In this document: positions 6,545 through 57,683 of the stretch, in pieces
Layout of the letters: each line of letters begins with the position of its first letter
Numbering within the stretch: the first letter of the stretch is position 1
Origin: Hyphomicrobiales bacterium
Lineage (GTDB): Bacteria; Pseudomonadota; Alphaproteobacteria; Rhizobiales; Beijerinckiaceae
DNA length: 64,000 nucleotides
Direction of reading: 5' to 3'
Assembly (NCBI GenBank): GCA_027489535.1
Contig: JAIXZO010000014.1
Span: 2,060 to 66,059, forward strand
Notes under the pieces: generated by a model
What the model was told of the DNA's origin: nothing
Database searches by the model: none
The model's input: only the letters and a program-made list of their open reading frames with translations
Program-made: the position numbers and the translations under genes

Positions 6545-7801
6545 ATGGCGCAGTTGAGCGGGGATGCGTTTGCGTTCGGGGGCGCGTTGATGCGCGTCGA
6601 GGACGCCGTGGCCACCATCCGCGAGCGGGTGAAGCCGGTCGGCCGGATCGAGCGGGTTTCGCTCCTCGCCGCCGACGGTCGTTTTTCGGCCGAAGCCGTG
6701 GTCGCGCCCGTCGATCTTCCTCCCTTCGACAATTCGGCCGTGGACGGCTGGGCCGTGCGCCATGCCGATCTCGCGGCGGGAGAGGCCACCCGCCTGCCCG
6801 AGCGCGGGCGCATCGCTGCCGGCGAGGCGTGGCGCGGAGAGCCCCCCGCGGCCACGACCGCCGTGCGCATCTTCACCGGCGCGCCCATGCCCCCGGGCCT
6901 CGACACGGTCTTCATGCAGGAAGACGTGAGCGCCGAGGCGGGCCTGCTGACCCTGCCGCCGGGACTGAAGCCCGGCGCGAACATGCGCCGCGCGGGCGAG
7001 GACCTGCCGCGCGGGGCGGAAGCCTTGGCCGCAGGCCGCCGCATCGGGCCGCGCGAAATCGCGCTCCTCGCGGCGCTCGGCAAGCGCGACGTCGCCGTGA
7101 GCGGCCGCTTGCGCGTCGCCGTGTTCTCCACCGGCGACGAGGTGACGGAACCCGGCGCGCCGCTCGGCCCGGCCGCGCTCTACGATTCCAACCGCTTCGT
7201 GCTGATGTCGCTCGCCGCCCGCATGGGCGCGGACGTCACCGATCTCGGCATCCTGCCCGACGATCGCCCGACGATCGCGGAGGCCTTGGCGCGGGCCGGG
7301 GCCGATCACGACCTCATCATCACCTCGGGCGGCGTTTCCACCGGCGAGGAGGATCACGTCAAGGGCGCGGTGGAGGATGCGGGCGCCCTCACCTTCTGGC
7401 GCATCGGCATCAAGCCCGGTCGGCCGGTGGCGATGGGCGTCGTGGGCGAAGCGGCCTTCGTCGGCCTGCCGGGCAATCCCGTGGCCGTCTTCGTCACCTT
7501 CGCGCATGTGGTGCGCCCGCTGATGACGGCGATGTCGGGCGGCGTGCCGGAAACCGCGGCGGCCCTGCCCGTCGTCGCGGGCTTCGCCTATCGCAAGAAG
7601 GAAGGGCGGCGCGAATATGTGCGCGTGTCGCTGGAGCGCGACCCGCAAGGCCGGGTGCTGGCACGAAAACACCCGCGCGAGGGCGCGGGCGTGATCACGT
7701 CTCTCACCGAGACCGACGGCCTCGTGGAACTGCCGGAAGACTGCGTGAACGTCGAACCCGGCGATACCGTCGGGTTCATGCCCTACGCGGCGCTGATCTG
7801 A
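6545..7801 (+). CDS. moeA: molybdopterin molybdenumtransferase MoeA
   Basis: Starts MAQLSGDAFAFGGALMRVEDAV in the frame of track ORF 6110..7801. Typical MoeA features: DGWAVR, PGANMRRAGED, ITSGGVSTGEEDH, IKPGRP, GLPGNPVA. Confidence 0.9.
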   Translation: MAQLSGDAFAFGGALMRVEDAVATIRERVKPVGRIERVSLLAADGRFSAEAVVAPVDLPPFDNSAVDGWAVRHADLAAGEATRLPERGRIAAGEAWRGEPPAATTAVRIFTGAPMPPGLDTVFMQEDVSAEAGLLTLPPGLKPGANMRRAGEDLPRGAEALAAGRRIGPREIALLAALGKRDVAVSGRLRVAVFSTGDEVTEPGAPLGPAALYDSNRFVLMSLAARMGADVTDLGILPDDRPTIAEALARAGADHDLIITSGGVSTGEEDHVKGAVEDAGALTFWRIGIKPGRPVAMGVVGEAAFVGLPGNPVAVFVTFAHVVRPLMTAMSGGVPETAAALPVVAGFAYRKKEGRREYVRVSLERDPQGRVLARKHPREGAGVITSLTETDGLVELPEDCVNVEPGDTVGFMPYAALI

Positions 7802-8087: not shown

Positions 8088-8723
8088 TCAAGCATCTTGA
8101 TGGGCGCGCGCGATGCGCTCGGCCTCGTCGAGGTCCTCGGGCGTGTTGGCGTTGAAGAACGGATCATAAGGGCTCGCCGCCCAATCGGCGGCCGCGCAGC
8201 CGTGCCGGGCCGTCCAGCGGTCGATCTTGCGAAGATCTTCCACCACCAGCGCGTGGCGCAGATCGTGCCGCAAGGCCACCGGCCAGAGCCCGATGGGCGG
8301 CTGGGTGCGACCCTCGGACGCGGCGCAGGCGAGCGGCACGCCCGCATCGCGGCGGGCCTCCTCCAGCCGGGCGACGAGATCGCGCGGCAGAAAGGGCGAA
8401 TCGGCCGAAACGCTCGCCACCGTCTCCACCTCCGGCCTGTGCAGCGCCGCCCAGTCGAGCGCCGCGAGAATGCCCGCGAGCGGCCCCGCAAAGCCCCCCA
8501 CGTCGTCGGCGACCACTGGCAGCCCGAAACCCGCGAACCGCGCGGGATCGCCGTTTGCGTTCAGCACCAGCCCGTCGCATTGCGGGCCGAACCGCGCGGT
8601 CACGCGGTCGAGGATGGTGCGCCCCGCTACCGCGCGCATCGGCTTGTCGCCCCCGCCCATCCGCCGCGCCAGGCCGCCCGCCAGCAGCACGCCGAGCGGC
8701 TTCTTCGCGACGGGGTCACTCAT
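8088..8723 (-). CDS. mobA: molybdenum cofactor guanylyltransferase MobA
   Basis: Starts [28 protein letters not shown], matching the LAGGxxxRMGGxDK signature. Start ATG 8723 was chosen within track ORF 8088..8771. It overlaps the fdhD stop by 8 nt. Confidence 0.85.
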
Positions 8724-9618
8724 CGTCGCGGCCGCCCTTGCGGCGGCTTTTGAGCGACTCGTCGCTGACATAAGCGAGGTCCTGATCGAAGATGATGCGG
8801 TCCTGCCCCGACAGGGCGATGAAGCGCTTGCCCTTGGCGCGGCCGATCAGCGTCAGCCCGCATTTGCGCGCAAGTTCCACCCCCCACGCCGTGAAGCCCG
8901 AACGCGAGACGAGCACCGGGATGCCCATGCGCACGGTCTTGATCACCATTTCCGAGGTCAGCCGCCCGGTCGTGTAGAACAGCTTGTCGCCGCCCGAAAT
9001 GCCGTTGGCGAACATCCAGCCGGCCACCTTGTCCACCGCATTGTGGCGGCCGACGTCTTCCATATAGACGAGCGGCTTGTCGCCTTCGCAAAGCACGCAG
9101 CCGTGGATCGCGCCCGCTTCCAGATACAGCGACGGCGTGGTGTTGATGACCGAGGTCAGCCGGTAGAGCCACGACGTCCGCACTTCCGTGCGCGGCAGCT
9201 GCACGGTCTCGAGCGCCTCCATCAGATCGCCGAAGGCGGTGCCCTGCGCGCAGCCCGAGGTCAGCGTCTTCTTCTTCAGCTTCTCCTCGAAATCCGTCTC
9301 TTCCGGCGTGCGCACCACCACCACGCCGAGATCGTCGTCGTAATCGACCCCGGTCACGACGTCGTCGGGCTTGAGCATGTTCTGGTTGAGCAGATAGCCC
9401 AGCGCCAGCCATTCGGGATGATCGAGGATCGTCATCATCGTGACGATCTCCCGGCTGTTGAGATAAAGCGTCAGCGCCCGCTCCACCGTCACCGACGTCT
9501 CCACCGGCCTGCCGGCTTCGTCGATGCCGGTCACGCGCTGCGTCAGGCGCGGATCATGCGGATCGGGGCGGACGAGCCAGTCGCCGGCCAAGCGTGCAAT
9601 GTCTTCCATCCCCGGCAT
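8716..9618 (-). CDS. fdhD: formate dehydrogenase accessory sulfurtransferase FdhD
   Basis: Contains the [11 protein letters not shown] motif with typical FdhD length and layout. I chose start MPGMEDIA (9618) because the longer track ORF N-terminus runs into a family B repeat fragment. Confidence 0.85.
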
Positions 9619-45619: not shown

Positions 45620-46156
45620 TCAGCGCGCGGCGGCGTCCCGCAGCAGCGCGACGACGTCTTCGATCGGCCGGGCGGCGTCCTGCACGAAGGCGGCGATGGC
45701 CTCGACATCGTCGAGATGGAACAGCGGCACGCCCGCTTGCTCGGGCTCGGCATCGGCCGCGATCCCGATCACGCTCGGATCGTCCGGATGCAGCCACGGC
45801 TTGCCGTTGGCGGCGCGGTGAACTTCCAGCTTCGCGTGCGGCTCGTGCTTGAAGCCCTCGACGAGCACAAGATCGACGGGCGACAGCAGGCCGAGAAGAT
45901 CGGCGAGCACGGGCTCGCGCTCCTCCCTCAATTCATGCATCAGCGCCCAACGCCGCGCCGAGCCGACGAGCACTTCGGTCGCGCCCGCACTGCGATGCGT
46001 GTGGCTGTCCTTTCCCGGCGTGTCCACGTCGAAGGCGTGGTGGGCATGCTTGACGGTCGACACGCGCAGTCCTTGCGCCGTCAGCCGGGGGATGAGGCGG
46101 GAGAGCAGCGTGGTCTTGCCCGCGCCGCTCCATCCGGCGATGCCGATCACCTTCAC
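45620..46156 (-). CDS. mobB: molybdopterin-guanine dinucleotide biosynthesis adaptor MobB
   Basis: GTG start, (M)KVIGIAGWSGAGKTTLL Walker A, and KHAHH. Confidence 0.88.
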   Translation of the reverse strand: MKVIGIAGWSGAGKTTLLSRLIPRLTAQGLRVSTVKHAHHAFDVDTPGKDSHTHRSAGATEVLVGSARRWALMHELREEREPVLADLLGLLSPVDLVLVEGFKHEPHAKLEVHRAANGKPWLHPDDPSVIGIAADAEPEQAGVPLFHLDDVEAIAAFVQDAARPIEDVVALLRDAAAR

Positions 46157-46186
46157 GAGATTGCCCTTTTACGAAACCTGCGTTGA

Positions 46187-46220
46187 ACGAAAACGGCCCG
46201 GCGGGGTCGCCGCCGGGCCG
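46187..46220 (-). terminator. intrinsic terminator after the FDH gamma subunit gene
   Basis: On the minus strand: CGGCCCGGCGG-cgacc-CCGCCGGGCCG followed by ttttcgtt, 24 nt after the stop at 46245. The mobB GTG start follows about 30 nt later. Confidence 0.55.
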
Positions 46221-46244
46221 CTTCCTGAAGCTGGTGCCGGAGAT

Positions 46245-47258
46245 TTACTCCGCGGCGACGGCTGACGGCGGAACCTTGGCGTTCCCCGCCTTGCCCATCT
46301 CCTCGGCGACCCAGAGCGAATGGTGCTCCTTCGCCCAGTTGAGGTCCACCTCGCCCGAGCCCATGGCGTCGAACGCGCCTTCCATGCCGACGGAGCCGAT
46401 ATAGATGTGCGCGATCATGATCGCCACGATCACGGCGGAAACGAGCCCGTGCACGATCTGCGCCGTCTGCATGCCCTCGATGGTGGTCACGTAGAACGGG
46501 AACAGCAGGATCAGGCCCGAGATCGACAAGGCGACGCCGCCGAGGATGACCGTCCAGAAGATGACCTTCTGGCCGGCGTTGAACTTCTTGGCCGGGGGAT
46601 GCGCGCCCTTCACGAAGAGCCCGCCGCCCGCCTTGATCCAAGCCGCGTCGACGCTGGAGGGAAGGTTGTCCTTCACCCAGACGAGGAACATGAAGACCAC
46701 GCCGAGCATGAACGGGAACGCGAGATAGTTGTGCGCGTATTTGCCGAGTAGCGAGACGGTGGTGAACGCCTCGGGCCCGAACAGCGGCATCAGCACATAT
46801 TTGCCGAACACCACGTTGAGGCCGGTGAGCGCCAGCACGATGAAGGTGCCTGCCGTCATCCAATGCACGAATCGCTCGAACGAGTTGAAGCGCAGGATCG
46901 TGCGGCCGGACGGACCGGCGTCGATCGTGATGCGGCCGCGCACGGCGTAGAACGCCGCGAGCAGACCCATCATGCCGAGGATGGAGATCGCGCCCGTCCA
47001 GAACACAGTGGTGTTGTGGAAGGTGCGCCATTCACGACCGGCGGGCTGGATCAGCACGGACGCCTTGGCGTCCGGAATGCTGATGCGGCCCTGCACCTGC
47101 TGGAGCTGCTGCAGCAGCTGCTCTTCCTTCACCGCCTGCGCGGTGGGGTTGAAGGGCTGCTGCGCCGCGGCCGGAGTGGCCGCGACGAAGGTTGCGAGGA
47201 CCGCGCCGAACAGTCCGAAGAGTGCGGCGCGGAGCGAGAAAGACAACACGTGCTTCAT
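46245..47258 (-). CDS. formate dehydrogenase gamma subunit (cytochrome b, FdnI/FdoI family) with N-terminal extension
   Basis: Multiple TM helices with conserved His (FERFVHWMTA, KYAHNYLAF, AQIVHGL, IAHIYIG), ending NWAKEHHSLW. Last structural gene of the FDH operon. Confidence 0.88.
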   Translation of the reverse strand: MKHVLSFSLRAALFGLFGAVLATFVAATPAAAQQPFNPTAQAVKEEQLLQQLQQVQGRISIPDAKASVLIQPAGREWRTFHNTTVFWTGAISILGMMGLLAAFYAVRGRITIDAGPSGRTILRFNSFERFVHWMTAGTFIVLALTGLNVVFGKYVLMPLFGPEAFTTVSLLGKYAHNYLAFPFMLGVVFMFLVWVKDNLPSSVDAAWIKAGGGLFVKGAHPPAKKFNAGQKVIFWTVILGGVALSISGLILLFPFYVTTIEGMQTAQIVHGLVSAVIVAIMIAHIYIGSVGMEGAFDAMGSGEVDLNWAKEHHSLWVAEEMGKAGNAKVPPSAVAAE

Positions 47259-47288
47259 ACAGAAGCCTCCCGTTCTGATGCGCCGCGG

Positions 47289-47885
47289 TCAGACCGCGAT
47301 CGTTTCCTTGTAGGCGACCTTCCAGCCCCAGGCGCCGGAGCCGTAGCCGCGCTTCAGGACACGCTCCTTGTAGATCGTGGCGATCATCTCGCCGTCGCCT
47401 GCAAGCAGAGCCTTGGTGGAGCACATTTCGGCGCAGATCGGCAGTTTGCCTTCGGCCAGACGGTTCGCGCCGTACTTCACGTACTCCTCGGGGGAGTTGT
47501 CGGCCTCGGGGCCGCCCGCGCAGTAGGTGCACTTGTCCATCTTGCCGCGCGAACCGAAGTTGCCGACCTTCGGATATTGCGGCGCGCCGAAGGGGCACGC
47601 GTAGAAGCAATAGCCGCAGCCGATGCACAGGTCCTTCGAGTGAAGGACCACGCCGTCCGCCGTCGTCAGGAAGCAGTCGACGGGGCACACGGCCGCGCAG
47701 GGCGCGTCCGTGCAGTGCATGCAGGCCATCGAAACCGAACGCTCGCCGGGCTTGCCGTCGTTGATCGTCACCACGCGGCGACGATTGATGCCCCACGGCA
47801 CCTCGTGTTCGTTCTTGCAGGCCGTGACGCAGGCGTTGCACTCGATGCAACGGTCGGCATCGCAGAGGAATTTCATTCGAGCCAT
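47289..47885 (-). CDS. formate dehydrogenase iron-sulfur (beta) subunit
   Basis: Starts MARMKFLCDADRCIECNACVTACK and has further 4Fe-4S motifs (CMHCTDAPCAAVCP, CIGCGYCFYACPFGAP, CTYC). No C-terminal TM anchor is evident. Confidence 0.9.
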   Translation of the reverse strand: MARMKFLCDADRCIECNACVTACKNEHEVPWGINRRRVVTINDGKPGERSVSMACMHCTDAPCAAVCPVDCFLTTADGVVLHSKDLCIGCGYCFYACPFGAPQYPKVGNFGSRGKMDKCTYCAGGPEADNSPEEYVKYGANRLAEGKLPICAEMCSTKALLAGDGEMIATIYKERVLKRGYGSGAWGWKVAYKETIAV

Positions 47886-47899
47886 GTTCGTCCCCTCCC

Positions 47900-50833
47900 T
47901 CACGCGGCCTTGATCTGGCAAAGCGTAACCTTGGTTTCCTGCATTGCAGTCACCGGGTCATATCCGTAGGTCGTCACGCCGTTCACGGCTTCGCCGAGAA
48001 CGATCGGGTCGGTGCCCTTGGGATATTTCGACCGCTGGTCGACGCCCTGGAACCATCCGCCGAAATGGAAGGGCATGAACGCCACGCCCTTGCCGACGCG
48101 CTCCGTGACGAGCGCCTTCACCTTGGCCTTGGAGCCGTAGTCCGGGCCGTTCACCCAAACCCACGAACCGTCCGCGATGCCGCGCGCGGCCGCATCGGCC
48201 GGGTTGATCTCGACGAACATGTCCTGCTGCAGCTCGGCCAGCCACTTGTTCGACCGGGTCTCTTCGCCGCCGCCCTCGTACTCGACGAGACGGCCGGAGG
48301 TGAGAACGATCGGGAAGTCCTTGGCGACGCCGCGTTCCACGCCGGCCTTCTGCACCGTCGCGCCGCGATTGGGTAGACGGAACTGACGGGCGTCGGGAAG
48401 CGTCGGGTACTTCTCGACCAGATCGATGCGCGGCGAGTAGATCGGCTCGCGATGCACCGGCACCGGGTCGGGCAGGTTCCACGCGATCGCGCGGGCCTTG
48501 CCGTTGCCGAACGGAACCACGCCCTTCTCGAGGCAGACGCGCTGGATGCCGCCCGAGAGATCGTTGGCCCAGTTGATCGCGTCGACATTGTTGCCGCCGA
48601 TCCGGGTGATCGTCTCCAGCTCCTTCTCGGTCAGCAGCTGATCCCAGCCGAGACGCTTGAAGATGCCGAAGGTGAACTCCGGATAGCCGTCGGTGATCTC
48701 CGAACCGAGCGAGAAGCTGCCTTCCGCCAACAGGGTCTTGCCCTCGCGCTCGACGCCGAAGCGGGGACGGAACGCGCCGCCGCCGTCACGAACGTTGAGG
48801 TTGGTATTGTACAGAAGATGCGTCCCGGGGTGCTTGACCTCGGGCGTGCCCCAGCACGGCCAAGGCAGGCCGTAATAGTCGCCCTTGTTCGGGCCGTCCT
48901 TGGCGCGCAGCGTGACGAGATCGAAATCGCCCTGCCGTTCCATATGCGCCTTGAGACGCTCCGGAGACTGGCCGCAATAGCCGGTCGACCAGCCGCCGCG
49001 GTTGATCTCGCGCAGGATGTCCTCGGGCACGGGCTGCTTGCCCTCGACCTTGATGTTCTTGAACATCCGGTCGGCGAAGCCGAGCTTCTCCGCGAGGCGG
49101 TAGATCACCTCGTAGTCGTCCTTGGACTCGAAGATCGGCTTGACGACCTGCTGGCCCCACTGGATCGAGCGGTTCGAAGCGGTACGGGAACCCGTCGTTT
49201 CGAACTGGGTGCAGATCGGCAGCAGATAGGTGCCGTTCTTGCGCTCGCCCATCACCGCGAAGGTGGTGGGGTGCGGGTCGGCGATGACGAGCAGGTCGAG
49301 CTTGTCGATGCCCTTTCCGATTTCCGGCATGCGGGTCACGGTGTTGCCGCCGTGGCCGAAGACCATCATCGCCTTGATGTTGTCCTTCTGGTCGACGTCG
49401 TCGGCGGGCATGAGGGCGGCATCGAACCAGCGCGTGGTCGGAATGCCGGGGGTCTCCATGTTCGCCTTGCGGGTGCGGGCCGCGCGACCCTGCTTGGCGG
49501 GCACTTCGTCGAAGCGCGCCTGCAGCCAGTCGTATTCCACTTCCCAAACGCGCGACCAATGACGCCAGGCGCCTTCGACGAGGCCGTAATAGAGCGGCAG
49601 CGTCGTCACGTCCAAGCCGAGGTCGGTCGCGCCCTGCACGTTGCAGTGACCGCGGAAGATGTTGGCGCCCATGCCCTGACCGCCGACATTGCCGGTGGCG
49701 AGAAGCAGGGTGCAGTAGGCGCGCACGTTGGCGGTGCCGACGGTCTTCTGCGTGGCGCCCATGCACCACACGAGGGTGGAGGGCTTCTGCGTGGCGAAGG
49801 TCTGCGCGACGCGCTTGAGCTGCTCGCCCGGAACGCCGGTGACGCGCTCGACCTCTTCGGGGGTCCACTTCGCGACTTCCTTGCGGACTTCGTCCATGCC
49901 GAACACGCGCTTGGCGATGAAGTCCTTGTCTTCCCAGCCGTTCGCGAAGATGTGGTGCAGCATGCCCCAGATGATCGGGATGTCGGTGCCGGGACGGATG
50001 CGGACATATTCCGTCGCGTGCGCGGCCGTGCGGGTGAAGCGCGGATCGATCACGAACATGTTGGCGCGGTTGATCTCCTTGCCGGAGAGCACGTGCTGCA
50101 ACGAGACGGGATGCGCTTCGGCCGGGTTGCCGCCCATCACGATGATGGTCTTGGAATTCCGGATGTCGTTGTAGGAATTCGTCTGCGCGCCGTAACCCCA
50201 GGTGTTCGCGACGCCCGCCACAGTGGTGGAGTGGCAGATGCGGGCCTGATGGTCGACCGAGTTGGTTCCCCAGAACGCGGCAAGCTTGCGGTAAAGATAA
50301 GCGCCTTCATTCGAGAACTTGGCCGAGCCGAGCCAGAACACCGAGTCGGCGCCGGACTTCGCCCGGACTTCCTGAAGCTTGTCGCCGATTTCGTTGACGG
50401 CCTGATCCCAAGAAATCCGCTGCCACTCGCCGTTCACGAGCTTCATCGGGTACTTGATGCGACGGTCGCCGTGCACGAGCTCGCGCACCGATGCGCCCTT
50501 GGCGCAATGCGTGCCGCGATTGATCGGGCTGTCCCAACCGGGCTCCTGCCCGACCCACACGCCGTTCTGCACTTCCGCGATGACGGTGCAGCCCACCGAG
50601 CAGTGGGTGCAGACGTTCTTGCGCAGCTGGATAGGCGCCGAGAAATTCGTCGGGCCGGCCTGCGCCTTGCGCACCGCGCCGAGCTGGATCGAACCGACGG
50701 CGGCCGCGCCCGCAACCGCGAGACCGGAACGCTTGAGGAAGGTACGACGGTCGAGAACGCCCGAGGTCAGGCCGGACGTCAGGGCCTGCAGCTTCGCGCG
50801 GCCGGCTTCGCCGCTTTTACGCTTGATGAGCAT
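47900..50833 (-). CDS. formate dehydrogenase catalytic (alpha) subunit, bis-MGD, Tat-exported, cysteine type
   Basis: Twin-arginine signal (LDRRTFLKRSGLAVAGAAAV), an N-terminal 4Fe-4S motif (CTHCSVGC) and HQARICHSTTVAGVANTWG. Cys200 (TGC at 50234-50236) aligns with the Sec of E. coli FdnG (ARVUHGPTV). Confidence 0.94.
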   Translation of the reverse strand: MLIKRKSGEAGRAKLQALTSGLTSGVLDRRTFLKRSGLAVAGAAAVGSIQLGAVRKAQAGPTNFSAPIQLRKNVCTHCSVGCTVIAEVQNGVWVGQEPGWDSPINRGTHCAKGASVRELVHGDRRIKYPMKLVNGEWQRISWDQAVNEIGDKLQEVRAKSGADSVFWLGSAKFSNEGAYLYRKLAAFWGTNSVDHQARICHSTTVAGVANTWGYGAQTNSYNDIRNSKTIIVMGGNPAEAHPVSLQHVLSGKEINRANMFVIDPRFTRTAAHATEYVRIRPGTDIPIIWGMLHHIFANGWEDKDFIAKRVFGMDEVRKEVAKWTPEEVERVTGVPGEQLKRVAQTFATQKPSTLVWCMGATQKTVGTANVRAYCTLLLATGNVGGQGMGANIFRGHCNVQGATDLGLDVTTLPLYYGLVEGAWRHWSRVWEVEYDWLQARFDEVPAKQGRAARTRKANMETPGIPTTRWFDAALMPADDVDQKDNIKAMMVFGHGGNTVTRMPEIGKGIDKLDLLVIADPHPTTFAVMGERKNGTYLLPICTQFETTGSRTASNRSIQWGQQVVKPIFESKDDYEVIYRLAEKLGFADRMFKNIKVEGKQPVPEDILREINRGGWSTGYCGQSPERLKAHMERQGDFDLVTLRAKDGPNKGDYYGLPWPCWGTPEVKHPGTHLLYNTNLNVRDGGGAFRPRFGVEREGKTLLAEGSFSLGSEITDGYPEFTFGIFKRLGWDQLLTEKELETITRIGGNNVDAINWANDLSGGIQRVCLEKGVVPFGNGKARAIAWNLPDPVPVHREPIYSPRIDLVEKYPTLPDARQFRLPNRGATVQKAGVERGVAKDFPIVLTSGRLVEYEGGGEETRSNKWLAELQQDMFVEINPADAAARGIADGSWVWVNGPDYGSKAKVKALVTERVGKGVAFMPFHFGGWFQGVDQRSKYPKGTDPIVLGEAVNGVTTYGYDPVTAMQETKVTLCQIKAA

Positions 50834-50845
50834 GGGTGCCTCTCC

Positions 50846-51043
50846 TCAGTACCGGTTGGTACGGTAGAAGGTTTTGACGTGTTCCGTTTCGCGGTAACGC
50901 GACTTGCGGGCTTCGTCCTTGGATTCCTTGGCCTCGACGTCGGTCGCGACGAACGGGGCGGCGAGCGCCGCCGACGAGGCGCCGCCGAGCACTCCGAAGA
51001 ACTTGCGGCGGGTCGGATCCGCCGGTTTGTCGTTGTGGTCCAT
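50846..51043 (-). CDS. small Tat-signal protein of FDH loci (formate dehydrogenase region TAT target, FdhX-like)
   Basis: 65 aa with a twin-arginine motif (PTRRKFFGVLGGASSAALAAP). It sits 12 nt upstream of the FDH alpha gene. Confidence 0.75.
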   Translation of the reverse strand: MDHNDKPADPTRRKFFGVLGGASSAALAAPFVATDVEAKESKDEARKSRYRETEHVKTFYRTNRY

Positions 51044-51082
51044 CGCTCTTCCCTCCTCGCGAAACCGAAAACCCTCCCCCGC

Positions 51083-51928
51083 TCACATCGGCAGGGTGAA
51101 GGCCTCGGCTTCGATCTCCATGAACAGTCGTCCGATGGTGCCCACCGGACGGTAGAACTCCGCGCCGGAAGCCGTTTCGAGGTCGGCGAAGAATCGCGCG
51201 GCCCACGGCTTCAGGTGTTTCTCGAAAAAGGCCTCCTGCTCCGCAGCGTCGCCGAAGCGGCTGTGGATGAGGCCGGACATGATTTCGCAGAGGATCGCGA
51301 TGTGATCCTCGGGCTCGCGGACGTCTTCCATGCGCTCGATGCCGAGCCGGTCGAGATCCGCGCGCACGTCGGCCAGCGGCCGTTCATGCAGAAACCCGGT
51401 CAGATAGAACGACGCATAAGGCAGCAATTCGCCGCGCCCGACGCCGATGAAGAGATTGAAGTACTCGCGCGAAACCGCTCGCGCTTCGACCTTTTCCGCC
51501 ATGTCGGCCAGCGCCATGCGCACCAGCCCGAGAGGCGAGGTGTCGCCGCCGGTCGCACCGACCCGCTTCAGCAGTTCCGCGTCGGGAGCGCGCCCGAGAA
51601 GGGCGGCCAGCATGTCGTACAGATCGGCGCGGGCCTGATCGACGTCGTCGAGGATCTCTGCGGTCAAGGGAGAGGCCTCCGCCGTGTAGAGATCGGGACG
51701 AAGATCAGCACGGGGAATGCCGGTCGCCGCTTCGACGGCGAGCACGCGCTCGGAAGGAACGCGACGCCAATTCGAGACGGAAGGCTGCGACACGCCGAGG
51801 GCGCGCGCCAAGGCGCCCACACCGCCGGCGGCTGCAATCGCGGTCTCGAGACCCGATTCCCTCACGCGCTTCGACCCCTCTTGTTCGGAATTCGCGGGCG
51901 AAACAAACCCGGGAGGGCCGCACGCCAC
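51083..51928 (-). CDS. Cro/YdaS-type HTH domain fused in frame to a TorD/DmsD-family redox-enzyme maturation chaperone
   Basis: N-terminal part: AIAAAGGVGALARALGVSQPSVSNWRRVPSERVLAVEAATGIPRADLRPDLY (YdaS/Cro pattern). C-terminal part: ARADLYDMLAALLGRAPDAELL ... EYFNLFIG ... PYASFY ... EDHIAILCEIM (TorD pattern). GTG start at 51928, and no stop between the two parts. Confidence 0.75.
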   Translation of the reverse strand: MACGPPGFVSPANSEQEGSKRVRESGLETAIAAAGGVGALARALGVSQPSVSNWRRVPSERVLAVEAATGIPRADLRPDLYTAEASPLTAEILDDVDQARADLYDMLAALLGRAPDAELLKRVGATGGDTSPLGLVRMALADMAEKVEARAVSREYFNLFIGVGRGELLPYASFYLTGFLHERPLADVRADLDRLGIERMEDVREPEDHIAILCEIMSGLIHSRFGDAAEQEAFFEKHLKPWAARFFADLETASGAEFYRPVGTIGRLFMEIEAEAFTLPM

Positions 51929-51994
51929 ATTGGAACGATTCCGATTTCCAATGAGACATAGGCGAAGGCTATGCCGGTGGAAAGTGCCTGTTTT

Positions 51995-52711
51995 TCAGTC
52001 GCCGGCGGGCATCGCCCCGCCGTGGCGACGTTTGCCTGAAACGGGCGACGGCCTGGAGACCGGAGGTTCGACGCCCCCCGGCTCGTCCGAGCTTACGTGG
52101 TTTCCCTGATTTCCTTCGGGAACCTCGGAAATTTCCCCTAAATCGGGCGTCGGTGCGACCTCGTCGTCGTCGCCTGCCGCGAGTTCCGGCGGAGCGGGCT
52201 GTTCCGCCTCAGCTTCCCCTTGCGACGTTTTGTCCAACTCGTCTTCCGGCTTTCCGATCAGTTCGCGCATGAGTTCGAGGGCATCCCGATCCCCCACGAT
52301 CTCTCCGTTCCCGGGTACACCGCCCGGAACGTTCCAATCATAGGCGTATTCGCGCGCCGGATTCTCGAAGTCGCGGATCATGGGATCGGTGATCCAGAGC
52401 TTGCGGAGTGCGGCATTTCGGATCGCGTGCGGAACGGCGCTCTGGAAAAACGGCGACATGTCCGTCCCGGCGACGATCTCTTCCAACGACGGCAGCGGAA
52501 TTTCCAGCTTGGCGGCATCGAAGACGTCGGGCGCGCGCTCCCCCGGATCGGTCCCCGCCTCCTCCGTTTTGATCGTAACGACGTCCCCTGAGGGAGTATC
52601 TTGTGAGAGCGGGATGACGGCGGCGTCGGCGGTCGGCTCATCCGCCGGGGCCGTCTTCGCCTCGATCTTCCGGCGTGACCAACGGCCGAGAAAGCCGCCC
52701 TCCTCGCTCAT
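51995..52711 (-). CDS. DUF3306-like protein
   Basis: The N-terminal FLGRWSRRK motif and the conserved block AIRNAALRKLWITDPMIRDF are as I recall for DUF3306. The C-terminus is acidic and low-complexity. There is a 4-nt overlap with the preceding gene. Confidence 0.65.
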   Translation of the reverse strand: MSEEGGFLGRWSRRKIEAKTAPADEPTADAAVIPLSQDTPSGDVVTIKTEEAGTDPGERAPDVFDAAKLEIPLPSLEEIVAGTDMSPFFQSAVPHAIRNAALRKLWITDPMIRDFENPAREYAYDWNVPGGVPGNGEIVGDRDALELMRELIGKPEDELDKTSQGEAEAEQPAPPELAAGDDDEVAPTPDLGEISEVPEGNQGNHVSSDEPGGVEPPVSRPSPVSGKRRHGGAMPAGD

Positions 52712-53217
52712 CGCTCGCCCTCGCGCTTGCCCGGCGGACCGCGTCGACCGAAGGCGTCGGGGTTCGCGCGGTCGCGCTTGCGCTTGAAGAATTCACGCTC
52801 GACGTGATGCGCCGCGAAAAACGCCTCGACCCATTCGCGGATCGCATCGGGCATCGGCACGGGCTCGACCGCGTCCTCGATGGAGTCGGCGAGCGACTCG
52901 CCCTCGTACGGGTCGACGGTCACGCACACGACCTCGCCGAAGCCGTCTTGTTCGGGTCGAAACGCGATCCAAACGCTCGGTCGTTCGGAGGTGAAGTTGT
53001 CGCGGTAATGCGGCGTTTCGCCCGGATAGAGCGAGATCGTCGCAAGCCCGGCATAGAACAATTCGCCGCTTTCGTCGGCGCGCAACTTCGTCCCCGGCGG
53101 GATCGGCGGCGGCTCGAGCAGCACGGCTTCGGGCCGCCACGCCACGCCGCCCCACGGACCCGTCAAAGCCCGCCGCGACACCAGCACGCCCACTTCGATG
53201 CGGTGCATCACGCTCAT
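52708..53217 (-). CDS. DUF3305-like protein
   Basis: Starts MSVMHRIEVGVLVSRR (53217) within track ORF 52708..53529. ATGA overlaps occur at both ends. No Cys, TM or signal peptide. Confidence 0.65.
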   Translation of the reverse strand: MSVMHRIEVGVLVSRRALTGPWGGVAWRPEAVLLEPPPIPPGTKLRADESGELFYAGLATISLYPGETPHYRDNFTSERPSVWIAFRPEQDGFGEVVCVTVDPYEGESLADSIEDAVEPVPMPDAIREWVEAFFAAHHVEREFFKRKRDRANPDAFGRRGPPGKREGER

Positions 53218-54218
53218 GCGACCGCTCCCGTCGCCAAGGGCAGCCCGGCGAGCAGGTTTTGAGGCTTCAACCGGATCGTCCGATCCTCGCTCATGCCGAG
53301 AATGAGATAGACGGGCGCCCCCTTCACCCGTTCGAGCACGGGCGCGTCGGCCGCAAAATCGAGACGGAAGAAGGCCACAGCGCGGTCGGCGACCGCCTTC
53401 GGCAGGGTTTCGCCCTTCCAGAGCATGTTGCCGATCCGCGTGCCGTCGGCATCGAGGCCGACGAACCAGCGCCAATCCGTGTCCTTGATCTCCGGCAGAG
53501 GCTTCACCGTCGCGGTCACGCCCAAGCAATGGGCGATCCAGCGTTCGATCACGCGGGCCAATGCATCGCGCGAGGCAGTCGCGCCGAAGTCCAGCACCAT
53601 CGTGAAGGCGTCCGAGCGGCTCCAGTAATCATAGGCGTTTTCGGCGGTGATGACGTCGAGTTCCTTCACCCGGTCATGCCCCATCATGGCCGCGAGCGGG
53701 GACGCGTGGGCATCCACCTCGAACTCCTCGATCACCTCGGCGTCGGCGAGCAGCAGCCGGCCTTCATGCACGCAGGCGCGCTGCGCCCGGAAGAAGAGTT
53801 CCCCGGCCCGCAGCACCATCGTGTCCTCGCAACCGTCGAGCACGTTGCGCAGCAGCAGATGCGCGAGATGCGAGAAGAAGATCGGCGGCGTCGTGCCCGC
53901 GCCGTTGCGCGCGAGGTCCAGATAAGCGGCTTCGACCGTCGCATGTGCGATCAACCGGTCGCGGAAGGCCACCAGAAAGCGCCAATTCTCCCGCGCATCG
54001 ACATCGGCGATCGCTTCCACCTCCAATGCGCTCACCGGCTTGCGCGGCGAGGCCATCAACGCGGCATGAAGCGCCCGCTCGGCCGCGCAGGCCTCGGGCG
54101 GGGGCAGCACTTCGGGCCGGGCGAGGTAGGCGAGCAGCAGTTCGTCCGTCACGGCGAGCCCGCCGGATTCCGTCCGACGGGTCAGATGATGGCCGCTCGA
54201 AACCCAGAATTCCTTCAC
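53214..54218 (-). CDS. uncharacterised protein (recalled label: DUF6352 family)
   Basis: GTG start 54218 ((V)KEFWVSSGHHLTRRTE) within track ORF 53214..54701. GC3-rich, with GTGA and ATGA overlaps with its neighbours. Confidence 0.6.
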   Translation of the reverse strand: MKEFWVSSGHHLTRRTESGGLAVTDELLLAYLARPEVLPPPEACAAERALHAALMASPRKPVSALEVEAIADVDARENWRFLVAFRDRLIAHATVEAAYLDLARNGAGTTPPIFFSHLAHLLLRNVLDGCEDTMVLRAGELFFRAQRACVHEGRLLLADAEVIEEFEVDAHASPLAAMMGHDRVKELDVITAENAYDYWSRSDAFTMVLDFGATASRDALARVIERWIAHCLGVTATVKPLPEIKDTDWRWFVGLDADGTRIGNMLWKGETLPKAVADRAVAFFRLDFAADAPVLERVKGAPVYLILGMSEDRTIRLKPQNLLAGLPLATGAVA

Positions 54219-54775
54219 GACCGTTTTCCTTCCGCGAGCCCGAGCAGGTCCACCCGTTCCTCGGGCCCCTCCTCGTCTCCGTCCTCTTCCACGATGACGA
54301 AGGCGCGCGAATGCATGTGCATCTTGTCCGCGCCCACATTCTTGTCCCGCTCCATCAGCACGCGGAACTGCTCGCGCACTTCCCCGTCCTCGATGGTGCG
54401 ATGCATGGCTATCAGCGTGCCTTCGGGATGTTCGGCCAGCCCCGCCGCGAAGTCGATTTCCTCTTGGGCCGCCGCTTGCGCGATCTCGAGCGACGGGGCG
54501 CCGAGATGGTCCACGAGGCTTTGCGCCAATTGGGAAACGGCTTCCTCCCGGTCGCCTTCGCGCAGCACCGTCACCACCGACAGCGTCGAAAACCCCAGCG
54601 AGCGCACCCCGGCAAACCCCGAGCGAAACGCGGCCCGGCGCTTGCCGACCAGCGTTCCCGCATCCTCGTTCATGAACAAGAAAGAGCCAGTCACCGCCCA
54701 TTCGCCGGGCTCGGCCGCGCGCTCGAACACGAACGTGTCGGAAGGATCGAGCCTGATGGTGCGCAGCAATTTCAC
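54215..54775 (-). CDS. uncharacterised protein (recalled label: DUF6505 family)
   Basis: GTG start 54775 ((V)KLLRTIRLDPSDTFVFE) within track ORF 54215..55654. GTGA overlaps occur at both ends. Confidence 0.6.
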   Translation of the reverse strand: MKLLRTIRLDPSDTFVFERAAEPGEWAVTGSFLFMNEDAGTLVGKRRAAFRSGFAGVRSLGFSTLSVVTVLREGDREEAVSQLAQSLVDHLGAPSLEIAQAAAQEEIDFAAGLAEHPEGTLIAMHRTIEDGEVREQFRVLMERDKNVGADKMHMHSRAFVIVEEDGDEEGPEERVDLLGLAEGKRS

Positions 54776-55575
54776 AGCGCGGGCGCTCCCGTCGCGACGT
54801 CCAGCCACTCGGGCGCGAGCAGGCCGGGGGCCAAAGGCCGCTTCTCCACCCGGCCGTTCGCCCCCGCCTTCACCAACAAATCGCCCGATGCGTCGAAGCT
54901 GCGGCGATCGGCGGGCCGCGTACGCGGCAACCGCTCCAGATAGCTCTCCGCCACGCCCTTGAAGCCGCGGCTCGCCCATGTGTCGAAGTGAACCATCAGA
55001 TGCCGGCTGAAGCTCTCGATGAGCATCCCCGCATCGACGTCCTCGAAGCCCTCCTCTTCGAGCGAGGACGAGTTCGGGTAAAACCCGGGATCGGAGAGAT
55101 TGCGCGACAACGTGATCATCGCGGAAAACACGAGCCAATCCGGCTCCGCCTTCTCCGCGCAGTCCTTCGGCCAGGACATCCGCGCCCCGCCGATCCGCGC
55201 GCCGTCGCAGCGGATGCCGCCGGGCCAATCGAACGCGATCGGCTTTTCGGGCGGCGCATGGGTCGACAGCGCATCCGCCACCGCCGCCATGCCGCAGATG
55301 AACGCCCGCCGCGCGGTCGCGAGCGGCTCGCCGGGCTCCAGCACCACCGCGAACTCCGCCACGTCGAAGCGCCGCGCCCAGACGAGCGTGCCCGCACCGG
55401 CCTCGGGCGCCAACGATTCGGCATGCCCGTGCGCATCCCCGCTTTCGCGGAGCGTGACGAGCGAATAAAGCGGCGGAAGCGAGAGTTCCGCCCGTTCGAG
55501 GGACTTCAGGTTCGTCATCGGGCTCATTTTCGGCTTTTCGCCTACACGTATCGAAACGCGGGCGGGCTTTTCCAT
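54772..55575 (-). CDS. biotin/lipoate A/B protein ligase (BPL_LplA_LipB) family protein, apparently degenerate
   Basis: The BPL-fold pattern (PPLYSLVTL ... TLVWARRFDVAEFAVVLEP ... IAFDWPGGIRCDGARIGGARMSW) aligns to the BirA/LplA catalytic core but lacks GRGRxGR and the KWPND lysine. The start is uncertain (55575, 55527 or 55518). Confidence 0.6.
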   Translation of the reverse strand: MEKPARVSIRVGEKPKMSPMTNLKSLERAELSLPPLYSLVTLRESGDAHGHAESLAPEAGAGTLVWARRFDVAEFAVVLEPGEPLATARRAFICGMAAVADALSTHAPPEKPIAFDWPGGIRCDGARIGGARMSWPKDCAEKAEPDWLVFSAMITLSRNLSDPGFYPNSSSLEEEGFEDVDAGMLIESFSRHLMVHFDTWASRGFKGVAESYLERLPRTRPADRRSFDASGDLLVKAGANGRVEKRPLAPGLLAPEWLDVATGAPAL

Positions 55576-55634
55576 ATATACGACGGGATCGCGACGGCGA
55601 GAGGTCCTGCGGTCGCAATTGGGGAATTCGGGTC

Positions 55635-57683
55635 ATGGCCCACGGCATCATCACTCAAGAACCGGTCATTCTCGTATGCTCCTGCGAGGAGACGATGCCG
55701 CTGCATGACGGCGCGGTCGCCAAGACGTGCCGCGGAACGGTCAAGACGGCCGATCAGCTCTGCCGTGCCGAGTCCGAGCGTTTCCGCCTCGCGCTCGAAA
55801 CCGGCGCGCCCGTCACCGTCGCCTGCACGCAGGAAGAACCCCTGTTCCGCGAGATCGCCGAGGACATGGGCCGCGAGGACGGGCTGACCTTCGTCAACAT
55901 CCGCGAGACCGCGGGCTGGTCCGACCGCGCCGCCGAGGCCGGCCCGAAGACGGCGGCGCTCATCGCCGCAGCCTCGGTCTCCATGCCGCCCGTTCCCTTC
56001 GTGGCAATGGAAAGCAAGGGCGTGGCGCTCGTCTACGGGCGCGACGAGACCGCGATCGAAATCGGTCGCCGTCTGGCGGACCATCTCGACGTCACCGTTC
56101 TTCTGAGCCGCCCCGCCGACGTCGCACCGCCGCGGCGCGACGAATTCCCGGTGGTGAAGGGCACGATCCGCAATGCCGCGGGCCGGCTCGGGGCCTTCGC
56201 CCTCTCCATCGACGATTACGCACTGCCCGCCCCTTCTTCACGCGGAGCGCTGCGCTTCGGTCCCTCGCGCAACGACGCGACCTCGACCTGCGACATCGTC
56301 ATCGACGTGTCGGGCGGCGCGCCGCTGTTTCCCGCGCACGACCTGCGCGCGGGCTATCTCCGCGCCGATCCGCGCGACCGCGCCCAGGTGGAAGCGTTGC
56401 TGTTCGAGGCGTCCCATCTCGTCGGCGAGTTCGACAAGCCTCAATACGTCAATTTCACCGAAAGCCTCTGCGCGCATTCCCGCTCCAAGCGCACCGGCTG
56501 CACGCGCTGCCTCGATCTCTGCCCCACCGGCGCGATCACGCCCGCAGGCGATCACGTCGCCATCGATCCCTACATTTGCGCAGGTTGCGGTTCCTGCGCC
56601 GCCGCCTGCCCCACCGGCGCGGTCGCCTATGCGCTGCCGCCCGCCGACGCCGTGATGCGCCGCCTGCGCGCCACGATGGTCGCCTATCGCGAGGCGGGCG
56701 GCACCGATCCGGTGCTGCTCCTGCATGACGGCGACCACGGCGACGCGCTCATCGACGCCCTCGCCCGCTTCGGCCGCGGCCTGCCGCCGAACGTGCTGCC
56801 GCTGAAGGTCAACGAAGTCACTCAGATCGGGCCGGAACTCGTCGCCGCCGCCTTCGCCTACGGCGCGACCGGCTTCGGCGTGCTGACCCGCGCCAAGCCG
56901 AAGCACGACGTGCACGGCCTCGAATCGACCCTGATCCTGATGAACGACATCCTCGGCGGCCTCGGCTACGGCACGGCCGCCGCCGGAATCGTCGCCACGG
57001 ACGATCCCGACGCGCTGCGCGACCTGCTCGACGCCGCACCCCGCGGCACGCCCTCGCCCGCGCCCGCGAGCTTCATGCCGCAGGGCAAGAAGCGCGGCGT
57101 GCTCGAACTCGCCTTCCGCGAACTCCACCGCGCCGCACCCGCCGCCGTCGACATGATCCCGCTCGCAGCGGGCGCGCCCTTCGGCGGGCTGGAGATCGAC
57201 GTCGCGGGCTGCACGCTCTGCCTCTCCTGCGTTTCCGCCTGCCCGGTCTCGGCGCTGACGGACGATCCCGAACGCCCGGCTCTCCACTTCACCGAGAGCC
57301 TCTGCGTCCAGTGCGGCCTGTGCGCCAACACCTGCCCGGAAAAGGTCATCACGCTCGCCCCGCGCGTCGACTTCAAGGCGTGGGAAGAGCCCAAGCGGCT
57401 CGTCAAGACCGAGGAACCCGCGCATTGCGTGCGCTGCGCCAAGCCCTTCGGCGTCAAGAGCACCATCGACAAGGTGCGCGCCAAGCTCGAAGGCAAACAC
57501 TGGATGTTCTCGGGCGAAGGCGGCGCGAGCCGCAGCGACTTGATCATGATGTGCGACACCTGCCGCATCGAAACGGTCGTCAATGAAGGCTTCGACCCCC
57601 ACGCCGCAGGCGCCCGCCCGCGGGTGCGCACAACCGAAGACTACCTCGCCGAACGCGAGCGCGGCGAAGACCCGCTGAACTGA
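55635..57683 (+). CDS. large 4Fe-4S polyferredoxin-like protein
   Basis: 682 aa. Three canonical CxxCxxCxxxCP motifs (CAGCGSCAAACP, CTLCLSCVSACP, CVQCGLCANTCP), one atypical (CAHSRSKRTGCTRCLDLCP), an N-terminal CSCE, and C-terminal CVRC...CDTC. No TM or signal peptide. Divergent from the FDH cluster. Confidence 0.8.
   Translation: MAHGIITQEPVILVCSCEETMPLHDGAVAKTCRGTVKTADQLCRAESERFRLALETGAPVTVACTQEEPLFREIAEDMGREDGLTFVNIRETAGWSDRAAEAGPKTAALIAAASVSMPPVPFVAMESKGVALVYGRDETAIEIGRRLADHLDVTVLLSRPADVAPPRRDEFPVVKGTIRNAAGRLGAFALSIDDYALPAPSSRGALRFGPSRNDATSTCDIVIDVSGGAPLFPAHDLRAGYLRADPRDRAQVEALLFEASHLVGEFDKPQYVNFTESLCAHSRSKRTGCTRCLDLCPTGAITPAGDHVAIDPYICAGCGSCAAACPTGAVAYALPPADAVMRRLRATMVAYREAGGTDPVLLLHDGDHGDALIDALARFGRGLPPNVLPLKVNEVTQIGPELVAAAFAYGATGFGVLTRAKPKHDVHGLESTLILMNDILGGLGYGTAAAGIVATDDPDALRDLLDAAPRGTPSPAPASFMPQGKKRGVLELAFRELHRAAPAAVDMIPLAAGAPFGGLEIDVAGCTLCLSCVSACPVSALTDDPERPALHFTESLCVQCGLCANTCPEKVITLAPRVDFKAWEEPKRLVKTEEPAHCVRCAKPFGVKSTIDKVRAKLEGKHWMFSGEGGASRSDLIMMCDTCRIETVVNEGFDPHAAGARPRVRTTEDYLAERERGEDPLN

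Follow-up and report, generated by a model that had tools for sequence, protein, structure and literature searches.

Five conserved genes and a divergent polyferredoxin gene accompany an FDH3-type formate dehydrogenase operon and are candidates for its assembly before export

Background

How does a formate dehydrogenase (FDH) that has to leave the cytoplasm already folded receive its cofactors, and which proteins attend to it until it leaves? This question is raised by a 64,000-nucleotide stretch of DNA from a Hyphomicrobiales bacterium (Beijerinckiaceae; assembly GCA_027489535.1, contig JAIXZO010000014.1, positions 2,060 to 66,059 of the forward strand; hereafter the window), in which the structural genes of an FDH are preceded by five genes, here called A to E, and face a divergently transcribed gene for a polyferredoxin. 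FDH3-type enzymes, the class to which we assign this one, occur widely among aerobic methylotrophs, rhizobia, roseobacters and Shewanella, and that of Shewanella is under development as an oxygen-tolerant CO2-reduction catalyst (PMC13066108). The cofactors of the catalytic subunit FdhA are bis-molybdopterin guanine dinucleotide (bis-MGD), which carries a sulfido ligand, and a single [4Fe-4S] cluster, and FdhB takes up about four further clusters; export by twin-arginine translocation (Tat) requires that both subunits be fully loaded and folded, and until then a TorD-type chaperone is expected to keep hold of the signal peptide (PMC10609526).

We propose that the five gene products and the polyferredoxin may constitute a cytoplasmic set that loads cofactors into, holds or checks the FdhA-FdhB precursor before Tat export, a reading in which our confidence is about evenly balanced. 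The locus thereby bears on how FDH3 enzymes, in oxic cells and with no FdhE, are supplied with bis-MGD, the sulfido ligand and five Fe-S clusters, and its gene set narrows this assembly question to a short candidate list.

Results

Five genes and a polyferredoxin gene adjoin an FDH3 operon

An initial annotation, made from the letters of the DNA, had described ten minus-strand open reading frames (ORFs) and a divergent plus-strand one, and our ORF check of the window finds these where they were placed: ten minus-strand genes run head to tail from 55575 to 46245, with the polyferredoxin gene leaving in the other direction (55635..57683, plus strand, 682 aa; Pfam Fer4 families; boundaries from the assembly's gene call). 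The first five minus-strand genes are A (54772..55575, 267 aa; biotin protein ligase (BPL)/LplA/LipB fold, PF16917), B (54215..54775, 186 aa; DUF6505, PF20115), C (53214..54218, 334 aa; DUF6352, PF19879), D (52708..53217, 169 aa; DUF3305, PF11749) and E (51995..52711, 238 aa; DUF3306, PF11748), with GTG starts in B and C. The four DUF names given in the initial annotation all proved right in Pfam searches, which return E-values of 1.5e-55, 1.4e-61, 4.9e-38 and 2.9e-16 (187.5, 208.9, 131 and 60.8 bits) for B, C, D and E, respectively, against gathering cut-offs of 23.9-25. Each of the A/B, B/C, C/D and D/E junctions is a 4-nt overlap (GTGA or ATGA), suggesting coupled translation, and the A/B, B/C and D/E overlaps are found again in most of about 75 related loci. 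With gene A starting at the called 55575 (an alternative start lies at 55527), the gap to the divergent gene, previously given as 59-117 bp, comes to 59 bp. The products of 267, 186, 334, 169, 238, 65, 977, 198, 337 and 682 aa are identical to proteins predicted in the source assembly.

Family searches also confirm the order recognised earlier for the second half of the operon: a TorD/NarJ-family chaperone of the FdhT/FdhM type with an N-terminal helix-turn-helix (HTH) domain (51083..51865, 260 aa; PF02613, PF15943), the Tat-signal protein FdhX (50846..51043, 65 aa), the catalytic subunit FdhA (47900..50833, 977 aa), the Fe-S subunit FdhB (47289..47885, 198 aa) and the cytochrome b gamma subunit FdhC (46245..47258, 337 aa), all on the minus strand. 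FdhB matches NF038355 (FDH3_beta) at 338.3 bits against a cut-off of 240, and FdhC matches TIGR01583 at 162 bits against 115.85 as well as PF01292. The best NCBIfam matches of FdhA are formate dehydrogenase alpha models, scoring under their cut-offs (449 vs. 666 and 311 vs. 814 bits). The Tat signal of FdhA is RRTFLK. Its sequence QARICHSTTV corresponds to QARV(Sec)HGPTV of E. coli FdoG, so that the Cys at the selenocysteine position identifies a Cys-type enzyme. FdhX, separated from fdhA by 12 nt, matches TIGR02811 at 49.6 bits against 48.45 and has the C-terminal motif YRETEHVKTFY. We class the predicted enzyme of this operon as an FDH3-type periplasmic formate dehydrogenase.

The neighbourhood is conserved yet reshuffled

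We surveyed genomes anchored on DUF6352, keeping one genome per species (233 species), and examined the best 80 loci, all from Hyphomicrobiales or near relatives and with 57-79% identity to gene C; the closest relatives of the window are Hyphomicrobiales metagenome-assembled genomes (MAGs), at 78-79% identity for DUF6352. The gene order of the window is kept in all but one of these loci as far as their contigs reach, with B and C present in all 80, A in 79, D in 78, the polyferredoxin in 74 and FdhA in 64, and with mobB flanking the cluster in 35. Since these loci are close kin, lineages in which the order has changed constitute the more telling evidence. At least seven arrangements of order and strand occur across Hyphomicrobiales, roseobacters, Azospirillum, a Variovorax and metagenomic contigs, and in these the rearranged genes still lie near FDH3, TorD, MobA/MobB or FdhD.

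In Hyphomicrobiales and Inquilinaceae the polyferredoxin gene is divergent from A-B-C-D-E-TorD-FdhX-FdhABC, and an Inquilinaceae genome with this order carries genes for a ParA/Mrp-family ATPase, MobB, MobA and FdhD directly downstream. Three roseobacter genera have B-A-ApbC-DUF6494-polyferredoxin divergent from D-E-TorD-FdhX-FdhABC, with no C, while on marine metagenome contigs DUF6494-ApbC-A-B-C converges with a polyferredoxin gene that is itself divergent from D-E. Azospirillum brasilense has A-D-E-TorD-FdhABC adjoining nadABC (locus L086, 14363-21811), with no B, C or polyferredoxin within 15 kb, and plasmid p4 of Azospirillum lipoferum 4B has a nadA-flanked TorD-FdhX-FdhABC with D-E 100 kb off on the same replicon and A lost (L103, 6117-11807; L082, 11887-13060); the nadA site of these two species offers a natural comparison of the loss or relocation of accessory genes. 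A Variovorax, a betaproteobacterium, carries D-E-polyferredoxin-TorD-FdhX-FdhABC followed by MoeA-like and TupA-like genes, one short metagenomic contig has D-E-polyferredoxin divergent from B-C, and another has polyferredoxin-TorD-MobA-C.

Taken with the exceptions described below, these rearrangements identify the five-gene block as the junction of two evolutionarily separable modules. Module D-E goes with TorD and FDH3, and in Variovorax also with the polyferredoxin, whereas module A-B, usually with C, goes with the polyferredoxin and elsewhere also with ApbC/Mrp and DUF6494. The "five-gene block" of the initial annotation therefore stands as a description of five contiguous genes in this window, but their junction is specific to the lineage. 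On the replicon level, a search of 72,556 plasmids and chromids found gene A in 84 records, D in 88 and FDH3-beta in 99, in the same genera, the surplus FDH3-beta records being more distant beta-/gammaproteobacterial or Loktanella operons.

DUF6352 comprises 1356 clusters at 50% identity in public data, and some of its representatives appear as fusions, namely polyferredoxin::DUF6352 (P0238, P0320) and DUF6352::DUF3305 (P0259). Their linkers read like out-of-frame translation of high-GC DNA and the start Met of DUF6352 is visible inside linkers, so we counted these cases as adjacency, not fusion. A MobA::DUF3305 fusion does exist in other organisms as a curated family, NCBIfam NF011058 ("MobA, DUF3305 domain-containing"). 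The match of gene D covers positions 220-375 of this model (70.8 bits), and that of the window MobA covers positions 11-198; the family cut-off of 820 bits, with both halves in one polypeptide, is not reached in the window, where mobA lies 44 kb from gene D.

Features of proteins A to E fit adaptors or chaperones better than redox enzymes

Proteins A to E are soluble, and none has a transmembrane segment or a Tat or Sec signal, as had been noted before: the highest 19-residue Kyte-Doolittle mean among them is 1.37, compared with 2.31 for FdhC. Family alignments likewise reveal no conserved Cys or His and no nucleotide-binding motif in any of the five. Together these features fit a chaperone or adaptor better than a redox enzyme.

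Gene A belongs to the fold family PF16917 (BPL_LplA_LipB_2; E 2e-58, 197 bits against a cut-off of 27), has a clear homologue in the structural-genomics entry PDB 3bfm (4e-18 by single sequence, 8e-71 by profile) and is distantly related to Staphylococcus aureus BirA (profile alignment E 0.02). The lysine of the BirA KWPND motif is catalytic. In the profile alignment this lysine falls on D in gene A, and across 14 diverse gene A homologues the position is D, T, L, Q, G or A, with no Lys or Cys invariant anywhere; gene A is therefore unlikely to adenylate or transfer biotin, lipoate or octanoate. Its sequence marks it as a pseudo-ligase, possibly one that binds a ligand.

In gene B the residues D10, D13, E25, K45, E106, R126 and E135 are invariant, none of them Cys or His. 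Across 17 gene C sequences, reaching down to 32% identity to the window protein, the motifs RPE, R..E...R.Q, W.W..GLD and KPQNL are kept and the cysteines are not. Confident AlphaFold2 models of C (predicted local distance difference test (pLDDT) 86, predicted TM-score (pTM) 0.86) and D (pLDDT 90, pTM 0.78) have no neighbour in the PDB by Foldseek (best E 1.9 and 0.59, with TM-scores <0.25), and sequence profiles of B, C, D and E return chance matches only against PDB sequences. Gene D is predicted to be a mostly beta domain with three helices and ends in a conserved basic tail, F-x-K-R-K-R-D-R (window 52708-52790). Among 18 diverse orthologues of gene E, an N-terminal F-L-x-R-W-S-R-R-K (window 52670-52711) and one central motif are conserved, the remainder being acidic, Pro-rich and of low complexity. 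The most conserved linear motifs of D and E are thus both basic, and the start of DUF3306 contains a twin-arginine-like S-R-R without a hydrophobic region; mimicry of a Tat signal for the TorD chaperone can be raised as an idea.

The polyferredoxin and its maturation neighbours

By Pfam Fer4 matches, the polyferredoxin contains two 2x[4Fe-4S] ferredoxin domains with four canonical [4Fe-4S] motifs, the number first reported; that count had overlooked two further four-Cys sites, one N-terminal (C15/C17/C43/C64) and one C-terminal (CxxC-x38-CxxC, C598/C601/C640/C643), encoded at window 55677-55826 and 57426-57563 on the plus strand. In 76 orthologues none of the 24 Cys that make up these six sites varies. 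Some 400 residues have no match in Pfam, and PDB matches are confined to the ferredoxin domains. The protein begins MAHGIITQEPVILVCSCEETM, in which no twin-arginine motif or hydrophobic N-terminal stretch is visible. Three further relationships were considered and rejected: an internal duplication (hhalign of the N-terminal against the middle region, probability <1%), an MvhD-like domain (Pfam FlpD, E 0.19 only) and membership of the napF family TIGR00402, which the protein matches over residues 521-605 only, at 46.8 bits against a cut-off of 102.2.

Several neighbours of the cluster take part in cofactor supply. ApbC is an Fe-S carrier. Its gene lies inside the roseobacter operon of polyferredoxin, A and B (350 bits against the NCBIfam equivalog cut-off of 348), and genes for MobA, MobB, FdhD, MoeA-like and TupA-like proteins occur near several clusters. 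The initial annotation had left open whether the proteins serve maturation, Tat targeting or redox partnering; because ApbC, MobA, MobB, FdhD and TorD are encoded in the same operons, gene context favours maturation, short of proof.

FdhE is not among these neighbours. The window yields no tblastn match to it with E <0.46, and the annotation of the 10-14 kb around each FDH3 operon that we inspected lists no fdhE. That the accessory set stands in for FdhE is our conjecture. As for a divergent FdhE among the known components, hhalign gives the polyferredoxin tail and families A to E a probability of at most 0.6%, and this candidate was rejected.

Evidence against an assembly role

Several observations weigh against an assembly role. 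Gene context would look alike for maturation and for a stable redox partnership, and with its six invariant Cys sites the polyferredoxin has the look of an electron wire. It could, together with some of A to E as subunits, be a permanent cytoplasmic electron-transfer module that exchanges electrons with FDH3 via FdhC or supplies another cytoplasmic reaction, an alternative that we consider unlikely. Beyond the invariance of its four canonical and two extra sites, its nearest sequence relatives are the electron-wire proteins MvhB, FwdF, HdrA and HycF, and its gene sits inside the structural operon of Variovorax. However, the protein shows no clear membrane anchor or docking segment, judged by the height of its hydropathy peak (1.81 compared with 2.31 for the membrane subunit FdhC) and not by the position or topology of that peak, and A to E lack conserved redox-cofactor ligands. 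The neighbours, moreover, are maturation genes (ApbC, MobA, TorD, FdhD) with no second oxidoreductase among them, and NapF provides a precedent for a four-cluster ferredoxin as a maturation factor.

The linkage to FDH itself has exceptions, and the best 80 loci, being phylogenetically close, are not independent observations. A Saliniramus MAG has polyferredoxin-A-B-C followed by unrelated genes, and neither D-E nor FDH is encoded within 10 kb of them. One sub-lineage of DUF6352, which shares 36-40% identity with the window protein and keeps the invariant residues of the family, lies away from any FDH or molybdoenzyme gene on contigs of 4-11 kb (L097, 3728-4738; L098, 332-1348; L099, 26-1051); on two of the three contigs a 77-79 aa ORF comes next, then a PALP enzyme (PF00291, pyridoxal-phosphate-dependent) and/or an acyltransferase, and on the third such genes are about 4 kb away. 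Conversely, an FDH3-like operon of Loktanella has no accessory genes within 14 kb, the Variovorax has no A, B or C near its FDH3 operon, and A. lipoferum has lost A and keeps D-E at its distance of 100 kb. The tie to a Tat-exported FDH proposed in the initial annotation is thus upheld by a neighbourhood that is conserved despite reshuffling, but some FDH3 operons lack it and the genes are not wholly confined to FDH loci.

These exceptions are what one would expect if only DUF3305-DUF3306 with TorD were specific to FDH, and A, B, C and the polyferredoxin, with or without ApbC, formed a general Fe-S or cofactor system that stands next to FDH3 in alphaproteobacteria by chance. The Saliniramus locus, the DUF6352 sub-lineage standing alone or beside a PALP enzyme and acyltransferase, and the Variovorax and A. 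lipoferum operons without A, B and C nearby all speak for it. We nevertheless judge it improbable: in all replicon-level comparisons available gene A occurs only where FDH3 and DUF3305 are present, and in the seven arrangements seen A, B, C and the polyferredoxin lie within a few kb of D-E, TorD or MobA.

The chaperone and a possible regulatory role

The TorD-like protein matches PF02613 (E 5e-31, 108 bits against a cut-off of 22.2) and PF15943 (E 3e-15) and falls short of the equivalogs of E. coli (TorD 62 bits vs. 132, DmsD 37 vs. 162); we place it in a distinct FDH-linked clade, as in PMC4464133. Its gene probably starts not at 51928 but at 51865 (260 aa), the position chosen in the assembly and one preceded by a good ribosome-binding site, which leaves 129 nt between gene E and the TorD gene. 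The N-terminal Cro/YdaS-type HTH aligns in 40 of 76 related loci and is missing from TorD of Methylobacterium, Sinorhizobium, roseobacters and Azospirillum. A DNA-binding chaperone could couple precursor load to transcription; a TTGGAA-N10-TTCCAA palindrome upstream of the gene, considered as its operator, is absent from 68 related loci and was rejected.

This HTH is one reason to consider that A to E might be regulatory proteins sensing formate, metal (W/Mo) or precursor status and controlling the operon with the TorD-fused HTH. DUF3306, largely disordered with short conserved motifs, resembles many adaptors and anti-factors in this respect, and a ligand-binding pseudo-ligase could be a sensor. 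Yet A to E are kept although the HTH is found in only 40 of 76 loci, the palindrome is not conserved, and five to eight conserved, translation-coupled genes would be unusual for a sensor. In roseobacters a gene for a sigma-54 activator accompanies the module, joined at one locus by a histidine kinase gene next to it, which indicates that dedicated regulators are separate genes there. Overall we regard a regulatory role as very improbable.

Flanking genes and transcription signals

Downstream of fdhC (about 46185..46225, minus strand), RNA folding gives a strong intrinsic-terminator-like hairpin followed by U-rich sequence (dG -35.2 kcal/mol, z = -3.8; 0 of 200 shuffles fold as well), in agreement with the hairpin and T-tract first described there; a terminator scan had missed the hairpin that folding then confirmed. 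The next gene is mobB, for an MGD-synthesis adaptor (45620..46156, minus strand), with 52% identity to the MobB (PF03205) adjoining the Inquilinaceae cluster. The window DNA has a high GC content of about 67%, and a consensus sigma-70 promoter scan of 45.5-58 kb gave no match. Further maturation genes, fdhD (8722..9591, minus strand; 62% identity to Sinorhizobium meliloti FdhD over 290 aa), mobA (8103..8702, minus strand; TIGR02665 MobA, 199 bits against 151.85) and a moeA-like gene (6551..7795, plus strand), are found elsewhere in the window, at a distance of 37 kb from the FDH operon.

Genes for a TupA-like tungstate-binding protein and an ABC transporter flank the cluster in S. meliloti (L081, 2577-4846), Sulfitobacter (L085, 4903-7126) and Variovorax (L102, 19806-25801). 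TupA is the best NCBIfam match for the two proteins scored, those of S. meliloti and Sulfitobacter, both under the cut-off; these neighbours hint that FDH3 enzymes may use tungsten. A c-type cytochrome of about 400-430 aa adjoins the cluster in Bradyrhizobium (L087, 6236-7525), Alloyangia (L084, 19086-20384) and Inquilinaceae (L088, 18139-19350), and could be the periplasmic electron acceptor of FDH3. WD40-type beta-propeller Pfam matches were seen only for the Inquilinaceae cytochrome, and the window has no homologue of the protein. Between fdhB and fdhC of Variovorax, an 83-aa hypothetical ORF (L102, 14618-14869) is labelled CAE-1 beta-lactamase by the PLSDB resistance-gene pipeline, very probably a spurious label.

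Discussion

A proposed two-sided route to the finished precursor

The two modules suggest a division of labour, each functional step of which we infer from sequence and gene context. On the pterin side, DUF3305 and DUF3306, probably a pair since their genes overlap, would act with the TorD-like chaperone in inserting bis-MGD, which MobA and MobB would have made and FdhD sulfurated. On the Fe-S or redox side, the polyferredoxin would act with A, B and C, joined in other lineages by ApbC/Mrp and DUF6494, in a role resembling that of NapF, namely Fe-S insertion before export.

A bolder version, which we advance tentatively and hold to be rather doubtful, is that all six proteins, with ApbC and DUF6494 where present, form an undescribed dedicated assembly line for the Tat-exported W/Mo FDHs of aerobic proteobacteria that replaces FdhE. 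The pseudo-ligase would bind a nucleotide-linked pterin or other small ligand, the polyferredoxin would deliver or check [4Fe-4S] clusters, and DUF6352 and DUF3305 would contribute folds with no solved relative.

Prior work and significance

Part of this linkage is not new: Bay, Chan and Turner (2015) reported genes for DUF3305, DUF3306 and a fer4 protein upstream of about 60% of dmsD/torD-fdhGHI operons, and called DUF3305 and DUF3306 "putative membrane proteins" (PMC4464133). Contrary to that label, both are soluble by the hydropathy measured here. Genes for the BPL-like protein, DUF6505, DUF6352, ApbC and DUF6494 are not in the 2015 report (PMC4464133), and a 2026 paper on the structure of Shewanella FdhAB names only FdhT and FdhX as helpers. 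Our literature searches on DUF6505, DUF6352, DUF6494, DUF4444, PF16917 and 3BFM returned nothing relevant, and the searchable literature reports no function for the five proteins. The window locus is one more copy of a widespread, annotated, uncharacterised cluster. New here are a longer list of linked genes and its division into two modules, the finding that A is a pseudo-ligase, the additional Cys sites of the polyferredoxin, the observation that C and D have no solved structural relative, and an apparent absence of fdhE.

The six to eight conserved genes beside the operon thus become obvious candidate assembly factors and likely requirements for heterologous production of FDH3 enzymes; should they be dispensable, the cluster would be a case of ordinary conserved synteny of DUF genes. 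Two Shewanella genes, SO4504 and SO4505, presumably encode DUF3306 and DUF3305, respectively. SO4504, SO4505 and SO4506 change together with fdhA in published transcriptomes (PMC2535785, PMC5826389), which lends some support to the proposed link with FDH.

Comparison with known systems

The E. coli enzymes FDH-N and FDH-O have dedicated cytoplasmic helpers for Tat-exported FDHs in FdhE and FdhD, of which FdhD is encoded in this window too. FdhE is rubredoxin-like, with four CX2C motifs, and by hhalign neither A to E nor the Cys-rich tail of the polyferredoxin resembles it. The TorD/DmsD/NarJ family, including FdhT of Shewanella and FdhM of Campylobacter, also includes the sixth gene of this operon, whereas the five proteins encoded upstream of it are not homologous to that family; FdhM, a TorD homologue, is required for Campylobacter FDH (PMC10609526). 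Gene A has the fold of the BirA, LplA and LipB ligases without the catalytic KWPND lysine of BirA, and shares its fold family with the PDB entry 3bfm, deposited as a "biotin protein ligase-like protein of unknown function". The closest parallel to the polyferredoxin in kind is NapF, which is needed for Fe-S insertion into NapA in Rhodobacter sphaeroides and binds NapA in E. coli (PMC10609526): both are non-exported cytoplasmic poly-[4Fe-4S] proteins encoded with a Tat-exported bis-MGD enzyme. The polyferredoxin differs in being four times larger (682 vs. about 164 aa), with about 400 non-ferredoxin residues and two extra four-Cys sites, and in being accompanied by five further proteins that Nap systems do not have.

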